Positions 10,128 to 25,287 of a DNA stretch of 50,952 bases are shown piece after piece. Location: assembly GCA_016927395.1 (NCBI GenBank), contig JAFGMU010000010.1:1-50952 (forward strand), in the 5' to 3' direction. The notes beneath the pieces were generated by a model that did not search any database, was not told where the DNA came from, and saw only the letters and a list, made by a program, of their open reading frames with translations. Position 1 is the stretch's first letter; the number at the start of each line of letters is the position of its first letter. The stretch comes from Alphaproteobacteria bacterium (lineage in GTDB: Bacteria > Pseudomonadota > Alphaproteobacteria > Rs-D84). A program made the position numbers and the translations under genes.

Positions 10128-11753
10128 ATGTTTGAAGTTGGAAAAGATATTTTAAAAAATGGTTTCAAATCGGTTGGTACAGAAAGCACAAGTCGCAGCC
10201 GTATTAGAATTGTTTATTATATATTTGTAATAACATTTGCAATATTTATATTCAGAACTTTATGGATTGGTATCGAAGGCACAAACAGAACCAGGCTTGC
10301 CGGTGGTGACAGCACATGGAACATTTCGCGCGCGGATATAGTTGATAGAAATGGTGATATTCTGGCCAAAAATGTTATGTCTGGAAATATTGTTTTGCGT
10401 CCCACACAGGTCAAGGATAGAGATGCGGTTGCAATGCTTATTCATACTGTTTTACCATCTGAATATACGGTTTCTGATGCTTTGCGACTTATAAATTCTT
10501 CACGTTCTTTTATTTATTTGAAAAAGCTTGCAAACGATAATCAGTTAAATCAAATAACCAAGGCAAAACTGCCAGGATTGAATATCGAAAGTATACAAAA
10601 CAGGGTTTATCCAAAACAAAGATTATTTTCGCACATTGTTGGTTTCGTAGAACAGGGTGGAAATGGTGCGGATGGTGCAGAAAAGTTTTTTGATTCTTAT
10701 TTGCGTGAAAACAAAGATCCGCTACAACTATCTCTGGATTCCAGAATTCAATCCGTTTTTTATGACCAACTGTCTTTGGCTATGCAGAAATACCAAGCAA
10801 ATTCCGCAATGGGAATGTTGATAAATTCGCGTACTGGTGAAATTATTGCAATAGTATCAATGCCTGATTATGACCCAGAAAACAGAAATCTTGATCCTAC
10901 AAAAAACAGAATGTTTATGCCAATGCGCGGTGTTTTTGAAATGGGGTCAATTTTTAAAATATTTAATACTGCTATGGCATATGAAAATGGAATAGACCAC
11001 GAGTATTATATTGCTAAACCTTATAAAATTTTAGATAAGTTTGGTCGTACAGCAGCGAATATAAGTGATATAAGTAGTTTTAAACCACCTCGTCCAAATT
11101 TGTCTGTTGCTGAAATTATGCTGCATTCATGCAACGTAGGAAGTGCTCAAATAGCTCTGGATCTTCCAGAAGGTACACAGCCAGAGTTTTTCAAAAGAAT
11201 ACATATGGATGATGCTTTGAATTTGGAATTTGGTAGAACTGAAAAACCATTGTGGCCCGCAAAGTGGGGTCCTGTTGAAAAAGCAACAGTTGCATTCGGA
11301 CATGGTATAGCAGTTACACCAATGCATGTATTATTGGCTGTAAATTCTATGATAAACGGCGGAATATATATTTATCCAACATTACAGAAACGTGGTATTG
11401 GTGTTGTTCAAGGCGAACGTGTTATATCACCAGAAATATCATCCAGACTGCGCGATATAATGTTCAGAATTTCAGAAGAAACATCTGGTAAACAAGCGAA
11501 AATTCCAGGAATAGATATTGGTGGAAAAACAGCAACTGCTGAAAAAAGGGTGAATGGAAAAATAGATAAAAAGAAAAACTTAACAGCGTTTGTTGGTGCA
11601 TTTCCAATAGAAGCACCACAATACACAATATTGATTGTTTTAGATGAGCCCAAGGGTACACCAGAAACATTCGGACTGCGTACTGCCGCTTGGAATGCTG
11701 TGCCAACTGCTGGAAAAATATTGAACGATATATTACCGCTGCTGTTTAATTAG
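10128..11753 (+). CDS. ftsI: peptidoglycan D,D-transpeptidase FtsI (class B PBP)
   Basis: 541 aa. N-terminal TM anchor, then SIFK (SxxK), SCN (SxN), and GKTATAE where KTG is expected. Confidence 0.88.
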   Translation: MFEVGKDILKNGFKSVGTESTSRSRIRIVYYIFVITFAIFIFRTLWIGIEGTNRTRLAGGDSTWNISRADIVDRNGDILAKNVMSGNIVLRPTQVKDRDAVAMLIHTVLPSEYTVSDALRLINSSRSFIYLKKLANDNQLNQITKAKLPGLNIESIQNRVYPKQRLFSHIVGFVEQGGNGADGAEKFFDSYLRENKDPLQLSLDSRIQSVFYDQLSLAMQKYQANSAMGMLINSRTGEIIAIVSMPDYDPENRNLDPTKNRMFMPMRGVFEMGSIFKIFNTAMAYENGIDHEYYIAKPYKILDKFGRTAANISDISSFKPPRPNLSVAEIMLHSCNVGSAQIALDLPEGTQPEFFKRIHMDDALNLEFGRTEKPLWPAKWGPVEKATVAFGHGIAVTPMHVLLAVNSMINGGIYIYPTLQKRGIGVVQGERVISPEISSRLRDIMFRISEETSGKQAKIPGIDIGGKTATAEKRVNGKIDKKKNLTAFVGAFPIEAPQYTILIVLDEPKGTPETFGLRTAAWNAVPTAGKILNDILPLLFN

Positions 11754-21487: not shown

Positions 21488-23056
21488 ATGAGAAAAGTAT
21501 TTATATTTTTAATTGCATCAATTATTAATATCGCCGCATTTGCACAAGAATCATTTTTGATTGGCGGTGATAATTTTGACGTTTTGAATGATTTAACAGT
21601 TTCTGAAGATTTTGCAATTTATTCAACGAATCTTAATATAAAAAATTCGATTTACCTTCAAAACCTTGGTGAAATTACCAGTAATGTATTTGTTTGTGAT
21701 GGTTGCAGGTTAAATGTTCAAAATAGCGGAATTATGTCCGGTGATATAAGTCTGGGCGAACATTCAGAATTGGTTCAAGTAATAAAAATGAACTCTGATA
21801 TAACACAGATGAATGTTATAAATTCTGACTATTCAATTTTAATACAAGGCGGCGAGTTGGTGAATCTTTCCGATGTTTTGCCAATTTCTGGGGGTACAAG
21901 TAAAATAGTTTTAGATAATACTGTTATTTTGATTGATAACGTAACATCCGATACAACAGTAAGAAATATAACACCAAGAAATGTTGAATTATTAGGAAAT
22001 GTAAAAATCAAATTAAATAATTCAAATGATTTAGATGGTGCTGTTTTATTATCAAATGTTTCTGGTGATGGGGCCGTTACAGTTGATGTTTATGGATTGG
22101 ATCCGCTTTATAATGCTATGGTTGAACGTCGTGACGGTGATATTTATCTTAAAATTTATCGAGAAACAGACTATCAGAAATTGCTGGGTGATTCGCGAGG
22201 AGAATTCATAAATAACTTACGAACCAGTTCGCCATATAATCCAACAATACGTGCAATTGACAGAGCAGGTAGTATTTCTGAAATTTATGGAATACTTGGA
22301 AAATCAGTCATATTAAATCCAATAAACTTGATGCACCCGATAAAATTATTTAATGAATTTGAAAATACAAAGTTTTCCGAAATAAAAAACCGAAGAAAAT
22401 CCGAAAGCGTGTCAGCAATAATAGAGCCTATTTATATATTCTCGAATGGTTTAAGTATGTATGCGGCAAAATCTACAATTATTAACACGACTAGAAATTT
22501 TCTTTTTTCTATATCTGGCTATGGTGGATATTTTAATGTGTCCGACGATATAAACGAATATTCTGGCAGTTTTTATGGTGGTGATATTCGTGTCAAGTAC
22601 GATAATAAATATATGTGGTTTGATAATAAATTTGGTTATACAAAGTCTAATTTTAACGCTGGAACAATACTGGAAGATAATACGGTAATAAATAATCCCC
22701 AAGGTAACATGATTTATGGTTTCTCAAACATTGGGGTAAAATTTAGATATGATGGATTTTATTTGTCACCGTATGTTGGATTTGGCAGTACCCAAGAATC
22801 CGTTGCCCATGAATACGATTCTTCTGTTTTTGGCGACATTGGATGTGTTTTTGGATTTAATGTTATGAATATGGGTTTGTTATACAGGTATTCTGCATTT
22901 ATTAATTCACAAACCGATAAGATAATAAGCGGTGGATTAAAAATGGAAGTTTGGTCAATAGATGATGCAGCCGGTGGAAGCTTGATTTATCAAGTAATAC
23001 AGGATGAAATTGGACTTTCAAACAAAATTTCATTTAATCTGAAATTCAGTTTTTAA
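21488..23056 (+). CDS. autotransporter-like outer-membrane protein
   Basis: 522 aa. Signal peptide ...NIAAFAQE. The Asn/Val/Ser/Gly-rich N-terminal half has beta-helix-like repeats (VQNSGIMSGDISLG). The C-terminal ~250 aa have alternating hydrophobicity and Gly/aromatic-rich strands, ending NLKFSF (terminal Phe). Confidence 0.65.
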   Translation: MRKVFIFLIASIINIAAFAQESFLIGGDNFDVLNDLTVSEDFAIYSTNLNIKNSIYLQNLGEITSNVFVCDGCRLNVQNSGIMSGDISLGEHSELVQVIKMNSDITQMNVINSDYSILIQGGELVNLSDVLPISGGTSKIVLDNTVILIDNVTSDTTVRNITPRNVELLGNVKIKLNNSNDLDGAVLLSNVSGDGAVTVDVYGLDPLYNAMVERRDGDIYLKIYRETDYQKLLGDSRGEFINNLRTSSPYNPTIRAIDRAGSISEIYGILGKSVILNPINLMHPIKLFNEFENTKFSEIKNRRKSESVSAIIEPIYIFSNGLSMYAAKSTIINTTRNFLFSISGYGGYFNVSDDINEYSGSFYGGDIRVKYDNKYMWFDNKFGYTKSNFNAGTILEDNTVINNPQGNMIYGFSNIGVKFRYDGFYLSPYVGFGSTQESVAHEYDSSVFGDIGCVFGFNVMNMGLLYRYSAFINSQTDKIISGGLKMEVWSIDDAAGGSLIYQVIQDEIGLSNKISFNLKFSF

Positions 23057-24335
23057 TTTTTCCACGAAGCGAAGATTTATTTGCAGCTGTGATTTCTATA
23101 TTAACCAGATTCGGAATTTTCCCAAAAGATGGTTTTTCAACAATACACTGCTGCATGTATGGTGTCCTAAACAGCAAGTGTTTTCCTGTTTTATCTGGAC
23201 CTTCGCACAGACATTCAAAAGTTTTTCCAATACAAGATTCATTAAATTCGCGCTGAATATCATTTAAGTATCCATCCAGCATTTTTAACCGTTCACGTTT
23301 TATATTATCTGGAATCTGGTCTTTCATTAATGCCGCTGCTGTATGGGGACGGGGTGAATATTTGAAAGAATAAGAATTTATGTATTTCACCTGGCGGGCA
23401 ATGTTCATTGTTTGTTCGAAATCCGAATCGGTTTCCCCTGGGAATCCAACAATAAAATCACTAGATATTTGAATATCTGGTCTGATAGCCCTTAATTTAT
23501 CTATAATATCTATATATAGATTCAGTGAATATGGTCGATTCATTCTTGTCAATACATTGATTGAACCACTTTGTATAGGCAAATTCAAGAAAGGTAGTAA
23601 TTTTGGCTGATTTCCGAACATTTTTATCAAATCATCGGTCATTTCTGTTGGGTAACTGGACGTAAATCTGATTCGTTTTACGGCATTTATCGCTGCTGTT
23701 TCGCGAATCAGGTCAGACAACATATAGTTTTCAAAGTGATAACCATTAACATTTTGCCCCAAAAAGCATATTTCAAATGCACCAGTGTCTGCTGCATGAT
23801 GTACATCGCGCATTACGTCGTCAAATGGACGTGATATTTCGCGTCCACGAGTGTATGGAACAATGCAATAAGTGCAACAGTGATTACAACCTTCTTGGAT
23901 TGGAATATATGAAACCAATGGCGATTCGACCATTTGTGGCATTTCATCAAATTTTTCTAATCCACCCAGATCGATATTTAGCAATTTGGAATCTGGATTT
24001 TCCAAAATTTCAGGCAATTTATGATAACTTTGTGGTCCCAGAACAAAATTAAGTTCAGGAATTCGCTTAAAAGCATCCGCGCCCGCTTCGCGGGCAACAC
24101 AACCAACAATTCCAAACAAGGCGTCAGGTTTTTTCGAATCGCGAATTCGTCCCAGTGCGCTGAAAACTTTGTTTGTTGCTTTTTCACGAACAGCACAAGT
24201 GTTCAGAATAATCAGATCAGCATCATTTGAATTATCAATTTGGGTCCAACCATTAACTTTTAACATATTGGAAATACGCTGCCCGTCATAAACGTTCATT
24301 TGGCAACCAAAAGTTTGTATAAAAAATTTTTTCAT
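23046..24335 (-). CDS. miaB: tRNA-i6A37 methylthiotransferase
   Basis: 429 aa. MTTase N-domain FGCQMN, radical SAM CNHCCTYC and a TRAM-like C-terminus. Confidence 0.93.
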   Translation of the reverse strand: MKKFFIQTFGCQMNVYDGQRISNMLKVNGWTQIDNSNDADLIILNTCAVREKATNKVFSALGRIRDSKKPDALFGIVGCVAREAGADAFKRIPELNFVLGPQSYHKLPEILENPDSKLLNIDLGGLEKFDEMPQMVESPLVSYIPIQEGCNHCCTYCIVPYTRGREISRPFDDVMRDVHHAADTGAFEICFLGQNVNGYHFENYMLSDLIRETAAINAVKRIRFTSSYPTEMTDDLIKMFGNQPKLLPFLNLPIQSGSINVLTRMNRPYSLNLYIDIIDKLRAIRPDIQISSDFIVGFPGETDSDFEQTMNIARQVKYINSYSFKYSPRPHTAAALMKDQIPDNIKRERLKMLDGYLNDIQREFNESCIGKTFECLCEGPDKTGKHLLFRTPYMQQCIVEKPSFGKIPNLVNIEITAANKSSLRGKIKN

Positions 24336-24409: not shown

Positions 24410-24438
24410 TTGCCAATAAAAATATCTTTGTATACAAT
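24410..24438 (+). promoter_or_regulatory. sigma70-type promoter TTGCCA-17-TACAAT
   Basis: Hexamers at 24410-24415 and 24433-24438 with a 17-bp spacer, ~210 bp upstream of the next CDS. Confidence 0.55.
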
Positions 24439-24444
24439 TAAATT

Positions 24445-24625
24445 GTTAACGGGTGTTCCGTTAATGAGGCTTAGTAACCTCGCACATGTTATCGCAATTA
24501 TTTTTGTGATGAAAAATGCCTTCCGACTTTTTTGGTCGGGAGGGCGTCAGAATATATAAATATGACGCGCAATTCATGTGATTGTTACTAACCTCCCGAT
24601 CACCAGATTTTTCTGGTGATTTTTT
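24445..24625 (+). ncRNA. candidate ~180-nt structured RNA (cis-regulatory leader or sRNA), class unknown
   Basis: Bounded by the promoter above and the terminator at 24599-24625. Contains several hairpins (TTAACGG/CCGTTAA, CCGAC/GTCGG, GCGTCA/TGACGC), the helix TCGGGAGG(24536-43):CCTCCCGA(24592-99), and duplicated TA(G/C)TAACCTC boxes. Confidence 0.4.
24599..24625 (+). terminator. intrinsic terminator inside a 5' leader
   Basis: ATCACCAG-ATTTTT-CTGGTGAT followed by TTTTT. Ends 15 nt before the SD AAGGAGG (24640-24646). Confidence 0.75.
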
Positions 24626-24651
24626 CGTAATTTGAATCTAAGGAGGTCGTA

Positions 24652-25287
24652 ATGAAAAAAATTACAATATTTATTTCAATTTTCTTATTTATTTTTAACT
24701 CAGCATTAGGAGGATTAGCATGCCTAACCCCTATGGAAGGTTGTATGCATGATAGTGATTGTGGTGACGCTTGTGTTTGTTCATATAATAATCAATGTGT
24801 AGCCTTACAAAAAAGTTGTACTACTTATCTACCAATAGAAAATGGTGAAAGAAGAACTTGTACTGATTCACCACCTTGTTTAGACGATATTTGTACATAT
24901 GAAGAATGTAATTGTGATACAGGATATCATTCTGCTGGTTACTACCCAGAATGTTATTGTGAAGTTGACTGTACAGATTCAAATTGTAAAGATGGTGATT
25001 GGTTGTCGCATATGAATTATCCCGGTTATGAAGAAAAAATTAATAGACATTGCTCAGACGATATTTGTATAGAAACTAAATCCTATCGTTGTTATAAGGG
25101 GTATTTTGGAAATCCAACTAGTTTTATTAATGGTTGTGAAAAATGTTCAATAGCTACTGGAAATCCTGGTGCTACGTCAATGACAGGTTCAACATCTATA
25201 ACACAGTGCTATATTCCAACAGGATATAAAAGTTCAGATTATAGTGGAAGTTTTGAATATACTTCAAATTGCTATTATTCTTTATAA
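24652..25287 (+). CDS. secreted cysteine-rich protein with eukaryote-like Cys repeats
   Basis: 211 aa. Signal peptide, then about 23 Cys in patterned spacing. The C-terminal CYKGYFGNP...GCEKCSIATGNPGATSMTGSTSITQCYIPTGY resembles ephrin-receptor-like/furin-like repeats. Confidence 0.7.
   Translation: MKKITIFISIFLFIFNSALGGLACLTPMEGCMHDSDCGDACVCSYNNQCVALQKSCTTYLPIENGERRTCTDSPPCLDDICTYEECNCDTGYHSAGYYPECYCEVDCTDSNCKDGDWLSHMNYPGYEEKINRHCSDDICIETKSYRCYKGYFGNPTSFINGCEKCSIATGNPGATSMTGSTSITQCYIPTGYKSSDYSGSFEYTSNCYYSL

Follow-up and report, generated by a model that had tools for sequence, protein, structure and literature searches.

The window analysed here is a stretch of 50,952 nucleotides, positions 1 to 50,952 of contig JAFGMU010000010.1 (assembly GCA_016927395.1), from an alphaproteobacterium of the Rs-D84 lineage. 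The locus of interest has as its neighbours miaB, a gene for a Cys-rich secreted protein, a 199-aa ORF, gatB and tRNA genes. Directly upstream of the Cys-rich gene lie a promoter, a structured RNA and an intrinsic terminator (Table 1). A Pfam domain search with the 211-aa product was negative, and the gap between the RNA and its gene is too short for a separate promoter.

The promoter named in the first-pass annotation is present, and its distance from the RNA is fixed among 97 copies of the RNA family described below. With the first base of the RNA model as reference, TANNNT starts at -12 and TTG at -35/-36, each in 73/97 homologues, and promoter conservation among the 97 copies is confined to the region upstream of the RNA. 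From the position of the promoter, the 5' end of the RNA is predicted to be G24445. The RNA was assigned to the plus strand since its frequent G-U pairs fit this strand only; against the family model (R1) the plus strand of the unit scores 222 bits and the minus strand merely 24.5 bits. An internal promoter, either TATATT in the P5 loop or TTGTTA, was rejected because an inserted P5 hairpin destroys the motif in some members and the spacing is not conserved.

Table 1. Features of the leader RNA locus, with positions counted from the first nucleotide of the window.
Feature	Position	Strand	Sequence or parts	Remarks
Sigma-70-type promoter	24410-24438	+	-35 TTGCCA (24410-24415), 17-nt spacer, -10 TACAAT (24433-24438)	10 of 12 consensus matches
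Whole RNA unit, 181 nt	24445-24625	+		Predicted start to end of U tract
P1, 5'-terminal hairpin	24445-24465	+	GUUAACGG / CCGUUAAU, loop GUGUU	MFE fold; covariation helix 1
Hairpin A, 5' domain	24466-24481	+	a = GAGG (24466-24469), a' = CCUC (24478-24481)	Loop with box b
Box b	24471-24478	+	UUAGUAAC	In hairpin A loop; pairs with b'
Box c	24483-24488	+	CACAUG	Pairs with c' in hairpin D loop
P3a	24489-24512	+		Variable-length hairpin; MFE fold; covariation helix 7
A-rich linker after P3a	24511-24517	+	GAAAAAU	Conserved; G67 and A68 nearly invariant
X5'	24519-24528	+	CCUUCCGACU	Upstream partner of antiX; anti-SD-like; putative 'anti-antiterminator' strand
antiX	24534-24543	+	GGUCGGGAGG	SD-like strand common to X5' and X3' pairings
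P5 hairpin	24544-24568	+	Conserved A/U-rich loop, family consensus GAAUAUAUUGAAUAAG	Covariation helix 9; aligns to sRNA-Xcc1 hairpin 1
Hairpin D	24569-24585	+	d = GCAAUU (24569-24574), loop = c' CAUGU(G) (24575-24580), d' = GAUUGU (24580-24585)	
Box b'	24584-24591	+	GUUACUAA	Partner of b; single-stranded linker in sRNA-Xcc1-like fold
X3'	24592-24601	+	CCUCCCGAUC	Downstream partner of antiX; putative antiterminator
Intrinsic terminator	24598-24625	+	GAUCACCAGA / UCUGGUGAUU, loop UUUU, then U tract (TTTTTT)	10-bp stem 24598-24621; covariation helix 10
SD, start codon and ORF	24640-25287	+	SD AAGGAGGU (24640-24647), ATG 24652	211-aa signal-peptide, Cys-rich protein

The terminator that had been recognised before the Shine-Dalgarno sequence (SD) is a canonical one, a G+C-rich hairpin with the U tract directly after it. 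The minimum free energy (MFE) of the RNA is -78.2 kcal/mol, compared with -40.6 +/- 4.1 kcal/mol in 200 shuffled sequences (z = -9.1), none of which folded as well (0/200), and the MFE fold contains all three of the hairpins proposed earlier, here at 24445-24465, 24519-24543 and 24544-24568. From its 5' end the molecule consists of P1, a 5' domain in which hairpin A (bearing box b) precedes box c, P3a, and finally a 3' domain like that of the small RNA sRNA-Xcc1. Within this 3' domain an outer stem encloses P5, hairpin D, whose loop carries c', and the linker b'. Boxes b and c pair with b' and c' of their own molecule, each copy carrying private box sequences.

A family of diverged copies in gut Alphaproteobacteria

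Homologues were sought by a pattern scan over 185,579 species genomes. Matches outside the lineage (Pseudohongiella, Sneathiella, Polyangiaceae, Planctomycetia, Trichormus, Bordetella) fail the family model and were taken as chance; intermediate forms do occur in other Alphaproteobacteria. Within the order (gut Alphaproteobacteria, Candidatus Enterousia / Rs-D84) the family is found in 118 of 151 sampled genomes, with four copies in the source genome and up to 39-44 per genome of about 1 Mb. Candidatus Enterousia and its relatives have genomes of less than 1 Mb (PMC12306168). An SD and an ORF follow 78 of 98 copies, the median distance from the RNA end to the start codon being 25 nt. About 20% of copies have no nearby ORF and one relative carries five tandem copies with no ORFs between them, so the unit is able to exist without a gene to regulate. 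The genes behind the copies mostly encode signal-peptide, Cys-rich proteins; Cro/C1-type helix-turn-helix (HTH) proteins and a glycosyltransferase also occur. In a same-genus relative of the source organism the cassette stands at another locus.

MAFFT with RNAalifold placed the c strand wrongly in an alignment of 18 sequences, and the resulting structure was a mixture; a covariance model derived from the window copy and the same-genus homologue took its place. In the family alignment 93.3% of cells are paired, against 68.5% in shuffles and 35-47% when the partners are slid. Double changes occur in 57 of 61 pairs, and the covariation score is 0.593 compared with 0.06-0.09 in controls. The helices that the first-pass annotation had drawn from a single sequence are conserved and covary in relatives, and the features go far beyond what chance would give.

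This pattern bears on whether the units are simply a mobile repeat, a MITE-like promoter/terminator cassette whose abundance reflects spread and not RNA function. Up to 44 copies in a genome of about 1 Mb, tandem arrays and the shifted locus in the same-genus relative would all suit such an element. Set against it, the copies within a genome are highly diverged with every helix kept by compensatory changes, they keep a fixed place with respect to the promoter and to the SD behind them, and no terminal inverted repeats were seen; we find a mobile repeat barely credible as the explanation.

Among the individual helices, P1 (helix 1) shows double changes in 8/8 pairs, with 96.7% of cells paired. 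The b:b' helix (helix 3) is present in every copy with 7-8 bp and 40 distinct pair types, all seven of its pairs showing double changes. The c:c' pairing spans 6-8 bp in all copies, with 80 pair types among 98 sequences; double changes occur at all pairs of this box c pairing (helices 5-6), in which 98.6% of cells are paired. Hairpin D keeps 5-6 bp in 95 of 98 copies, including a compensatory change from A-U to U-A in 11 sequences, and aligns to hairpin 2 of sRNA-Xcc1. Conserved unpaired stretches are GAAAAA, the P5 loop consensus, GCRCAAUUC and AUUGUU, and an RCC (ACC or GCC, columns 510-512) stands right after the outer stem in about 94% of copies. The repeated box TA(G/C)TAACCTC reported in the window copy is present at both places, but not as a direct repeat with a separate role: its two occurrences are the two strands of the b:b' helix. 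In the window copy b and b' are near-palindromic by chance and each is followed by CCUC; elsewhere the strands differ and stay complementary.

Two competing folds over the terminator

An alternative pairing of antiX, upstream with X5' or downstream with X3', had been proposed from the window sequence, and both options covary in relatives. The antiX:X5' helix (helix 8) has double changes in 9/10 pairs and a mean of 8.5 contiguous bp. The antiX:X3' outer stem is 90% paired with double changes in 8/10 pairs, and it averages 9.8 contiguous bp, reaching at least 9 bp in 93 of 98 copies. The CCUC of X3' is alternatively able to pair with strand a (GAGG) of hairpin A.

The last four nucleotides of X3' (GAUC, 24598-24601) lie inside the terminator stem, and in the family the antiX:X3' helix and the terminator share alignment columns 505-509. 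Loss of the four shared nucleotides weakens the median terminator hairpin, whose energy is -10.6 kcal/mol when intact, to -3.2 kcal/mol, and leaves 89 of 93 copies weaker than -5 kcal/mol. The terminator of the window copy falls from -14.1 kcal/mol intact to -7.9 kcal/mol without these nucleotides; since a 6-bp hairpin would still precede the U tract, antitermination in this copy may be only partial. Complementarity of ACCUCC (24591-24596) to GGAGGU of the SD (24642-24647), noted earlier, was confirmed from the sequence.

The two mutually exclusive folds appear to switch the downstream genes, and we think it moderately probable that the family is a multi-copy, cis-acting leader RNA that gates the gene behind it by the choice between them. 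Transcription would start from the conserved promoter at about 24445. In the predicted OFF fold antiX would pair with X5', leaving X3' free so that the full terminator forms; transcription would end at about 24621-24625 and yield the 181-nt RNA. In the predicted ON fold antiX:X3' would form the sRNA-Xcc1-type outer stem and remove the bottom four nucleotides of the terminator stem. ACCUCC would then be hidden and the SD free, and RNA polymerase would read into the Cys-rich gene. The first-pass annotation had seen in its exclusive helices, leader terminator and anti-SD a transcriptional/translational switch, and the covariation in about 100 homologues upholds the core of that reading.

Nested free energies and the order of synthesis both suggest that OFF is the default. 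The fold with antiX paired upstream is lower by about 10 kcal/mol at full length in 92 of 93 copies, and by about 7 kcal/mol in 90 of 93 copies as long as the terminator still lacks its 3' arm; the true balance of the two folds is uncertain because nested energies ignore possible loop-strand (pseudoknot) pairings. If OFF is the default, some factor must favour the ON fold. It could be a protein, a ligand, RNase P processing as in phage c4, or the terminated product itself.

The strong preference for one fold in nearly all copies could also mean that the RNA is a constitutive structured leader with a single native fold, which stabilises or insulates the mRNA or holds read-through at a constant level; the other pairings would then be a mere folding intermediate. 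A P1 hairpin at the first transcribed base is typical of RNA-stabilising elements, and no trigger for a switch was found. This explanation leaves the covariation of X3' with antiX unaccounted for; X3' covaries although it is unpaired in the favoured fold, so the antiX:X3' pairing must be selected. The overlap with the terminator is conserved as well, and three mutually complementary strands kept in about 100 diverged copies are otherwise hard to explain. We regard a constitutive leader as very unlikely and retain the terminator switch. That selection acts on the RNA is also suggested by a comparison of the window copy with its same-genus relative, in which the leader is 79% identical and the downstream protein aligns only over the C-terminal ~110 of its 211 residues with 35% identity.

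Relation to sRNA-Xcc1 and phage c4

At gathering thresholds an Rfam scan of the window returned two tRNAs only. The family is absent from Rfam 15, and no published description of it was found. The 3' half of the RNA, however, aligns to positions 1-87 of the sRNA-Xcc1 model (RF02221) with 35.8 bits (E 9.7e-5 over 401 nt), below the 53-bit gathering threshold, and other copies from the relatives tested score 33-42.7 bits, all likewise below it. The earlier assignment to an unknown class thus holds for Rfam at threshold and has to be amended for the 3' half, a diverged sRNA-Xcc1 relative. An isrK match of 15.7 bits covers the terminator hairpin only, on the minus (wrong) strand, and together with a psRNA6 match at E <= 10 was taken as chance. 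Neither c4 (RF01695) nor any Rfam riboswitch matched at E <= 10, and no hammerhead or other known ribozyme core was recognised.

sRNA-Xcc1 was reported as an 88-nt RNA (PMC2996969). It is known from Xanthomonas integron cassettes, where it lies upstream of symE, and also from Xylella genomic islands and APSE phages; C4, IsrK and sRNA-Xcc1 occur side by side in one Xylella genome (PMC12189769). What the present family shares with it is an outer stem (about 10 bp) around two hairpins, the first with an A/U-rich loop (GAAUA...AAUAAG) and the second with a variable one, a single-stranded linker, and the RCC after the stem. In both, a protein gene follows immediately on the same strand (bioRxiv 10.1101/2025.06.18.660453, 10.1101/2020.03.17.996009), and both form tandem arrays, sRNA-Xcc1 in Xylella (PMC12189769) and this family in one relative. 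At true sRNA-Xcc1 loci we also found a hairpin upstream of the RNA, with a loop and a 3' flank that are able to pair with the linker and the second-hairpin loop; these upstream boxes were seen in the present analysis and are no part of the Rfam model. Pairing with the own upstream region came to -26.7 kcal/mol compared with -20.7 kcal/mol for other loci, which at n=13 is suggestive only, and in several loci (L181, L183, L185, L187, L189, L190) boxes were also present at the SD of the downstream gene. Since true sRNA-Xcc1 loci carry the same upstream partner boxes, the family is judged to be related, at a distance, to the phage c4 / sRNA-Xcc1 class, remodelled into what appears to be a terminator switch in cis.

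The differences are equally clear. The SD-flanking boxes of several true sRNA-Xcc1 loci are missing from the family, its upstream boxes are fused into one transcript of about 180 nt, and it possesses two further parts, the competing strand X5' and a canonical intrinsic terminator that has nucleotides in common with the outer stem. Its outer stem is SD/anti-SD-like (GGAGG/CCUCC), and it has expanded to dozens of chromosomal copies before secreted-protein genes.

The upstream boxes a1/b1 of c4, an RNA to which IsrK is related, have been described as the c4-a1b1 motif (Weinberg et al. 2010, PMC2864571). Like c4 of phages P1 and P7, the family is a short structured RNA upstream of the gene it would control, on the same strand and from the same promoter, with two exposed recognition elements complementary to boxes upstream in the same transcript. 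Citron and Schuster (1990, cited in PMC8201110) reportedly found that the c4 recognition sequences differ between P1 and P7 and are matched by compensatory changes. Phage c4 RNA is excised by RNase P, which recognises an RCC-type end after a stem. Unlike c4, the family has no a2/b2-type boxes at the ribosome-binding site and the locus is not a phage immunity region, although some members do precede Cro/C1-type HTH genes. Control here appears to act on the intrinsic terminator, not on translation of the downstream ORF.

With attenuators and riboswitch platforms the RNA has in common three competing strands (X5', antiX, X3'), the last overlapping a terminator directly upstream of the SD. It differs from them in having no leader peptide, tRNA-binding element, known protein-binding motif or known aptamer; its sensing part would be a c4/sRNA-Xcc1-like domain with a cis decoy. 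By descent the unit would come from a c4 / sRNA-Xcc1-type antisense cassette whose 'decoy' boxes became fused to the RNA and whose target shifted from the ribosome-binding site to the terminator.

Specificity of the boxes and candidate signals

The guide elements of a copy pair with their own 5' domain at -15.5 kcal/mol and with those of other copies at -6.5 kcal/mol, and the own domain ranks in the top 5% for 100% of copies. Pairing with the 150 nt downstream of the own copy is no better than with those of other copies (-8.66 against -8.58 kcal/mol), and box matches of at least 6 nt near the ribosome-binding site occur in 7-8 of 97 copies, compared with 6.5% in non-own controls. On these two results c4-like targeting of the downstream gene was rejected. 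A search for trans targets in the source genome found none besides the RNA's own 5' domain. In one genome 39 distinct b/c codes occur in 40 copies, and cross-talk among those 40 copies is limited to 5 of 1560 pairs, two of them from a recent duplicate.

These results weigh on a reading in which the RNA is a stand-alone, trans-acting antisense sRNA of c4 / sRNA-Xcc1 type, and the gene behind it is expressed only by leak-through. The product would be the 181-nt RNA or a 3' domain of about 90 nt, with c' and b' pairing to other RNAs such as nascent transcripts of the own locus. Each copy does have its own promoter and a strong terminator, five tandem copies stand without ORFs, the 3' half is built like the 88-nt sRNA-Xcc1 (PMC2996969; tandem in Xylella, PMC12189769), the loop and linker of true sRNA-Xcc1 match boxes flanking the SD of the next gene, and the RCC found after the outer stem in about 94% of copies resembles an RNase P-type end. 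The matching boxes are nevertheless missing from the copy's own downstream leader, no other target is seen in the source genome, copies within one genome hardly ever match each other, and neither Hfq nor ProQ was found in the source genome (92% complete). Moreover, the SD and ORF attached to 78 of 98 copies come too soon after the RNA for a promoter to fit in between, so read-through must matter. We judge the antisense reading unlikely and continue to prefer the cis-acting switch. Because every unit has its own promoter and terminator and the five tandem copies have no ORFs, an independent sRNA of about 180 nt, which the first-pass annotation had offered as its alternative, could still be a second role.

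What might set the switch was considered from the cellular factors encoded in the source genome. RNase P RNA is encoded; no NusG paralogue and no GGDEF domain were found, and the lack of the latter makes c-di-GMP unlikely as a signal. A metabolite riboswitch, in which the conserved junctions and the P5 loop form a ligand pocket and binding stabilises one fold, would match the conserved core with variable helices, the conserved unpaired nucleotides and the competition of terminator and antiterminator, an architecture typical of transcriptional riboswitches; high copy numbers per genome are known for some classes. We consider it quite unlikely. The regulated genes are a heterogeneous set without a metabolic theme and so point to no ligand, its closest kin, sRNA-Xcc1 and c4, act by pairing with RNA, and both the missing GGDEF domain, as regards c-di-GMP, and the lack of any Rfam riboswitch match at E <= 10 speak against it. 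Nothing in the data points to a metabolite ligand.

A more speculative form of the cis-acting switch, to which we give little weight, is that it is self-addressed: the terminated RNA, or a processed sRNA-Xcc1-like 3' domain, would meet the growing transcripts of its own locus, compete there with the pairing in cis and so reverse the choice made at the terminator. The private b/c code of each copy would limit this action to the own locus. If true, each secreted-protein gene would have an independent, short-term-heritable ON/OFF feedback. In a genome with almost no protein regulators, cells could in that case come to differ in their surface and secreted proteomes by means of RNA alone.

Genomes of less than 1 Mb here give up to 44 units of about 180 nt to one RNA design, placed before fast-evolving genes for secreted and surface proteins, so it is probably by this RNA that the organism mainly controls the genes of its interface with the gut. 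The family indicates that a phage or integron antisense cassette (c4 / sRNA-Xcc1) may be rebuilt into a chromosomal cis-acting attenuator, and with it come about a hundred orthogonal variants of a single switch design, all of them natural. For sRNA-Xcc1, an RNA still listed without a known function, the boxes seen upstream and at the ribosome-binding site of true loci suggest a concrete c4-like mechanism.

Site and covariation of the leader RNA

The intergenic region is flanked by miaB (minus strand, start 24335) and a plus-strand ORF (24652-25287) encoding a 211-aa Cys-rich protein with a signal peptide. The RNA segment folds at -78.2 kcal/mol compared with -40.6 +/- 4.1 in 200 dinucleotide-preserving shuffles (z = -9.1), none of which was as stable. 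All the hairpins and complementarities named by the first-pass annotation within 24410-24651 were found, and the promoter and the terminator close before the SD are both present. The sole correction needed concerns TA(G/C)TAACCTC, described as a repeated box, which is two strands of a single helix with CCUC after each.

Features of the leader locus and further leader copies in the same genome
Feature	Position	Strand	Basis or context
Promoter TTGCCA-17-TACAAT	24410-24438	+	sequence scan
RNA segment, 181 nt	24445-24625	+	folding
Intrinsic terminator, 10-bp stem and U tract	stem 24598-24621	+	sequence scan
SD AAGGAGGU	only 15 nt beyond U tract	+	Cys-rich ORF
Further leader copy	C3:22284-22473	-	window's genome, R1 search
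Further leader copy	C22:24640-24830	-	window's genome, R1 search
Further leader copy	C31 ~11025-11208	-	window's genome, R1 search

The helices are kept in relatives. Although the model-guided alignment (105 matches, 103 distinct) was fitted to the long-range fold under test, and its figures lean that way, the margin is very large: 93.3% of cells are paired, vs 68.5% in column shuffles and 35-47% when partners are shifted by 1-3 columns, double changes occur in 57 of 61 pairs (1451 cells), and the covariation score is 0.593 vs 0.06-0.09 in the control. A column-independent, per-sequence test gave longer contiguous pairing with a copy's own partner than with that of another copy for the 5'-terminal hairpin P1 (8.3 vs 4.4 bp), for box b with the linker b' (7.3 vs 4.3) and for box c with box c' (6.8 vs 3.6). 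The RNA is read from the plus strand, because G-U pairs are frequent in that fold and the opposite strand scores only 24.5 bits with R1, the covariance model of the family. That the leader is a real RNA feature is strongly supported.

On the far side of miaB (23046-24335, minus strand), a convergent 522-aa ORF (21488-23056, plus strand) shares 11 nt (23046-23056) with it at their 3' ends; its product ends in ...NLKFSF, as in outer-membrane beta-barrel proteins, and has no Pfam match.

Copy number and downstream genes

Searching 40 relatives with blastn returned one full-length homologue, a same-genus copy at 79% identity; the matches in several genera were partial, some of them in many copies. 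R1 was built from the window copy and this homologue on their minimum-free-energy structure. Within the order it matched 118 of the 151 genomes sampled, and within the window's own family 111 of 121. The matching lineage, Candidatus Enterousia and other gut MAGs, is the reduced-genome order Rs-D84 (PMC12306168). Three genomes of ~1 Mb carry 14, 39 and 44 copies, and the window's genome (779 kb, 92% complete) carries four. Single copies with the same parts occur in five other alphaproteobacterial families (42-55 bits). One to three good copies each were also found on contigs binned as Bacteroidota (L119, L123, L159, 'Bacteroides fragilis ... cleanbin'; L175, 'Muribaculaceae'), scoring 92-107 bits on L119 and L175; these are probably mis-binned Enterousia contigs.

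The promoter register is kept among 97 family copies, at a fixed distance from the RNA: 73 have TANNNT at -12, and 73 have TTG at -35/-36. Among 98 distinct copies, 78 are followed by an SD no more than 60 nt away together with an ORF of 40 aa or longer, the median distance from RNA end to start codon being 25 nt. These genes depend on read-through, because terminator and SD are too close together for a promoter to fit. At least 58 of the 78 ORFs have a signal-peptide-like N-terminus, and the ORFs have a median of 7.2% cysteine. Small Cro/C1-type HTH proteins (Pfam HTH_3 or HTH_19) follow a minority of the copies, two of which are in the window's genome, and a glycosyltransferase follows one. 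The three further copies in the window's genome are a diverged subtype with a CUAUUC/GUAG hairpin D, an additional hairpin within the loop of the P5 hairpin and a weak X5' strand; their cargo is one glycosyltransferase-like gene and a pair of small Cro/C1-type HTH genes rather than Cys-rich genes.

Judged by sequence identity, conservation is far stronger in the leader than in its downstream gene: RNA identity to the same-genus copy is 79%, whereas the proteins can be aligned (35% identity) over no more than the C-terminal ~110 of the window protein's 211 residues. The cassette of that relative occupies another locus, with a membrane-protein gene on one side and thrS on the other. The two Cys-rich proteins (L009:847-1479 in the second species of the genus) both end in ...CYYSL and their N-terminal halves are unalignable; the cargo is fast-evolving behind a conserved leader.

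Five tandem copies with ~240 nt spacing occur at L143:3936-5063 (minus strand; contig CALXPB010000002.1). Each unit has its promoter and terminator, ORFs are absent between them and an HTH-like gene lies behind the last. Their flanks are near-identical, and boxes b and c are combinatorially shuffled from copy to copy. The 71-aa protein behind the last copy resembles the small HTH proteins behind other copies and has no Pfam match.

Two pairing sets and the terminator

The first-pass annotation had claimed mutually exclusive helices, and these are borne out. The strand antiX (GGUCGGGAGG, 24534-24543) is complementary to the upstream strand X5' (24519-24528; mean 8.5 contiguous bp across the family) and to the downstream strand X3' (24592-24601; mean 9.8 bp, with 93 of 98 copies reaching 9 bp or more). 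All three strands co-vary among copies, with double changes in 8 of 10 antiX:X3' pairs by column counts. The antiX:X3' fold also contains hairpin A (GAGG/CCUC), whose loop carries box b, and hairpin D (GCAAUU/GAUUGU), whose loop carries box c'. Eleven sequences show a compensatory change from A-U to U-A in hairpin D, and others replace its stem completely, for instance with CUAUA/UAUAG.

Four alignment columns are common to X3' and the 5' arm of the terminator. With these nucleotides withheld, the median stability of the terminator hairpin falls from -10.6 (9 bp) to -3.2 kcal/mol (5 bp), and 89 of 93 copies are left with a hairpin weaker than -5 kcal/mol; the window copy, the strongest terminator, goes from -14.1 to -7.9 kcal/mol. 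The full-terminator fold is favoured by ~10 kcal/mol, or by ~7 kcal/mol before the terminator 3' arm exists, but these nested energies ignore loop-strand pairings, and boxes b and c', in loops of 7-8 nt, could pair with hairpins A and D intact; the true balance between the folds may therefore differ.

The switch architecture proposed in the first-pass annotation stands as regards its conserved parts, the two pairing sets, the terminator overlap and the linkage to a downstream gene. The leader most likely acts in cis as a terminator/antiterminator; the OFF/ON action itself is inferred. Transcription would start at 24445, X5':antiX would form first and the terminator would act (OFF). A shift to antiX:X3' would cripple the terminator (ON) and would also hide ACCUCC, which is otherwise able to base-pair with the SD GGAGGU. 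Neither Hfq nor ProQ nor GGDEF, considered as candidate helpers of the switch, was found in the window's genome (92% complete), which has a single NusG and an RNase P RNA.

Relation to sRNA-Xcc1 and c4

The leader RNA had been placed in no known class, and the Rfam scan indeed yielded no family at threshold for it. That view holds in part: in a permissive scan its 3' half aligned with the whole of sRNA-Xcc1 (RF02221), scoring 35.8 bits (threshold 53), other copies scored 33-42.7 bits, and the Rfam model aligns to exactly the antiX:X3' fold. True sRNA-Xcc1 loci, above threshold in 24 of 151 sampled Pseudomonadota, carry ~100 nt upstream a GGGG-loop-CCCC hairpin absent from the Rfam model and then a short box (L180-L193), the same arrangement as hairpin A and box c of the leader family. 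The upstream loop is complementary to the sRNA linker and the box to the loop of the second hairpin. At six loci (L181, L183, L185, L187, L189, L190) both boxes recur on either side of the downstream gene's SD (n=13 loci; statistics only suggestive).

The antisense RNA c4 of phages P1/P7 reportedly has a1/b1 boxes upstream of it, while its target boxes, a2/b2, sit at the ribosome-binding site. This design matches the upstream and SD-flanking boxes of several true sRNA-Xcc1 loci, which suggests, by analogy, that sRNA-Xcc1 acts by a c4-like mechanism. Within the c4/sRNA-Xcc1 kind of RNA, the leader family is an uncatalogued variant that has expanded massively. Its new parts are X5', a canonical terminator that overlaps the outer stem (antiX:X3'), and the nearly invariant SD/anti-SD-like character of that stem (GGAGG/CCUCC). 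Together they would turn an antisense device acting on translation into a cis switch that works on transcription and probably on translation too. An RCC after the outer stem, in ~94% of leader copies and in the sRNA-Xcc1 consensus, would fit c4-like processing by RNase P without proving it.

Duplex energies of Enterousia leader boxes were alike for their own downstream region and those of other copies (-8.66 vs -8.58 kcal/mol), and close to the SD, matches to the boxes 6 nt or longer were no more frequent than in non-own controls; both results rule out a ribosome-binding-site target for these boxes. The leader guide pairs with its own 5' domain at -15.5 kcal/mol vs -6.5 for other copies. The window's genome has no second site with the b..c arrangement of the window copy, and 40 copies in one genome carry 39 distinct codes, with 5 of 1560 pairs cross-compatible. 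Box pairing is thus intramolecular, since there is no ribosome-binding-site partner and no other site in the genome, and the codes are nearly all private.

Citron & Schuster 1990 is cited for c4 antisense RNA in PMC8201110, and PMC2864571 lists a c4-a1b1 motif. sRNA-Xcc1 has been described in integron cassettes, where it precedes symE (bioRxiv 10.1101/2025.06.18.660453), in APSE phages, ahead of an ORF6N gene (bioRxiv 10.1101/2020.03.17.996009), and in Xylella as a five-fold tandem array, also adjoining C4 and IsrK (PMC12189769). At L180-L193 a terminator-like hairpin and U run come after the upstream hairpin and box. Hairpin P3a of the leader (24489-24517 and homologues) is always followed by GAAAAA, which on the opposite strand reads as a hairpin after a U run; its equivalent at true sRNA-Xcc1 loci has a U run after it on the sense strand.
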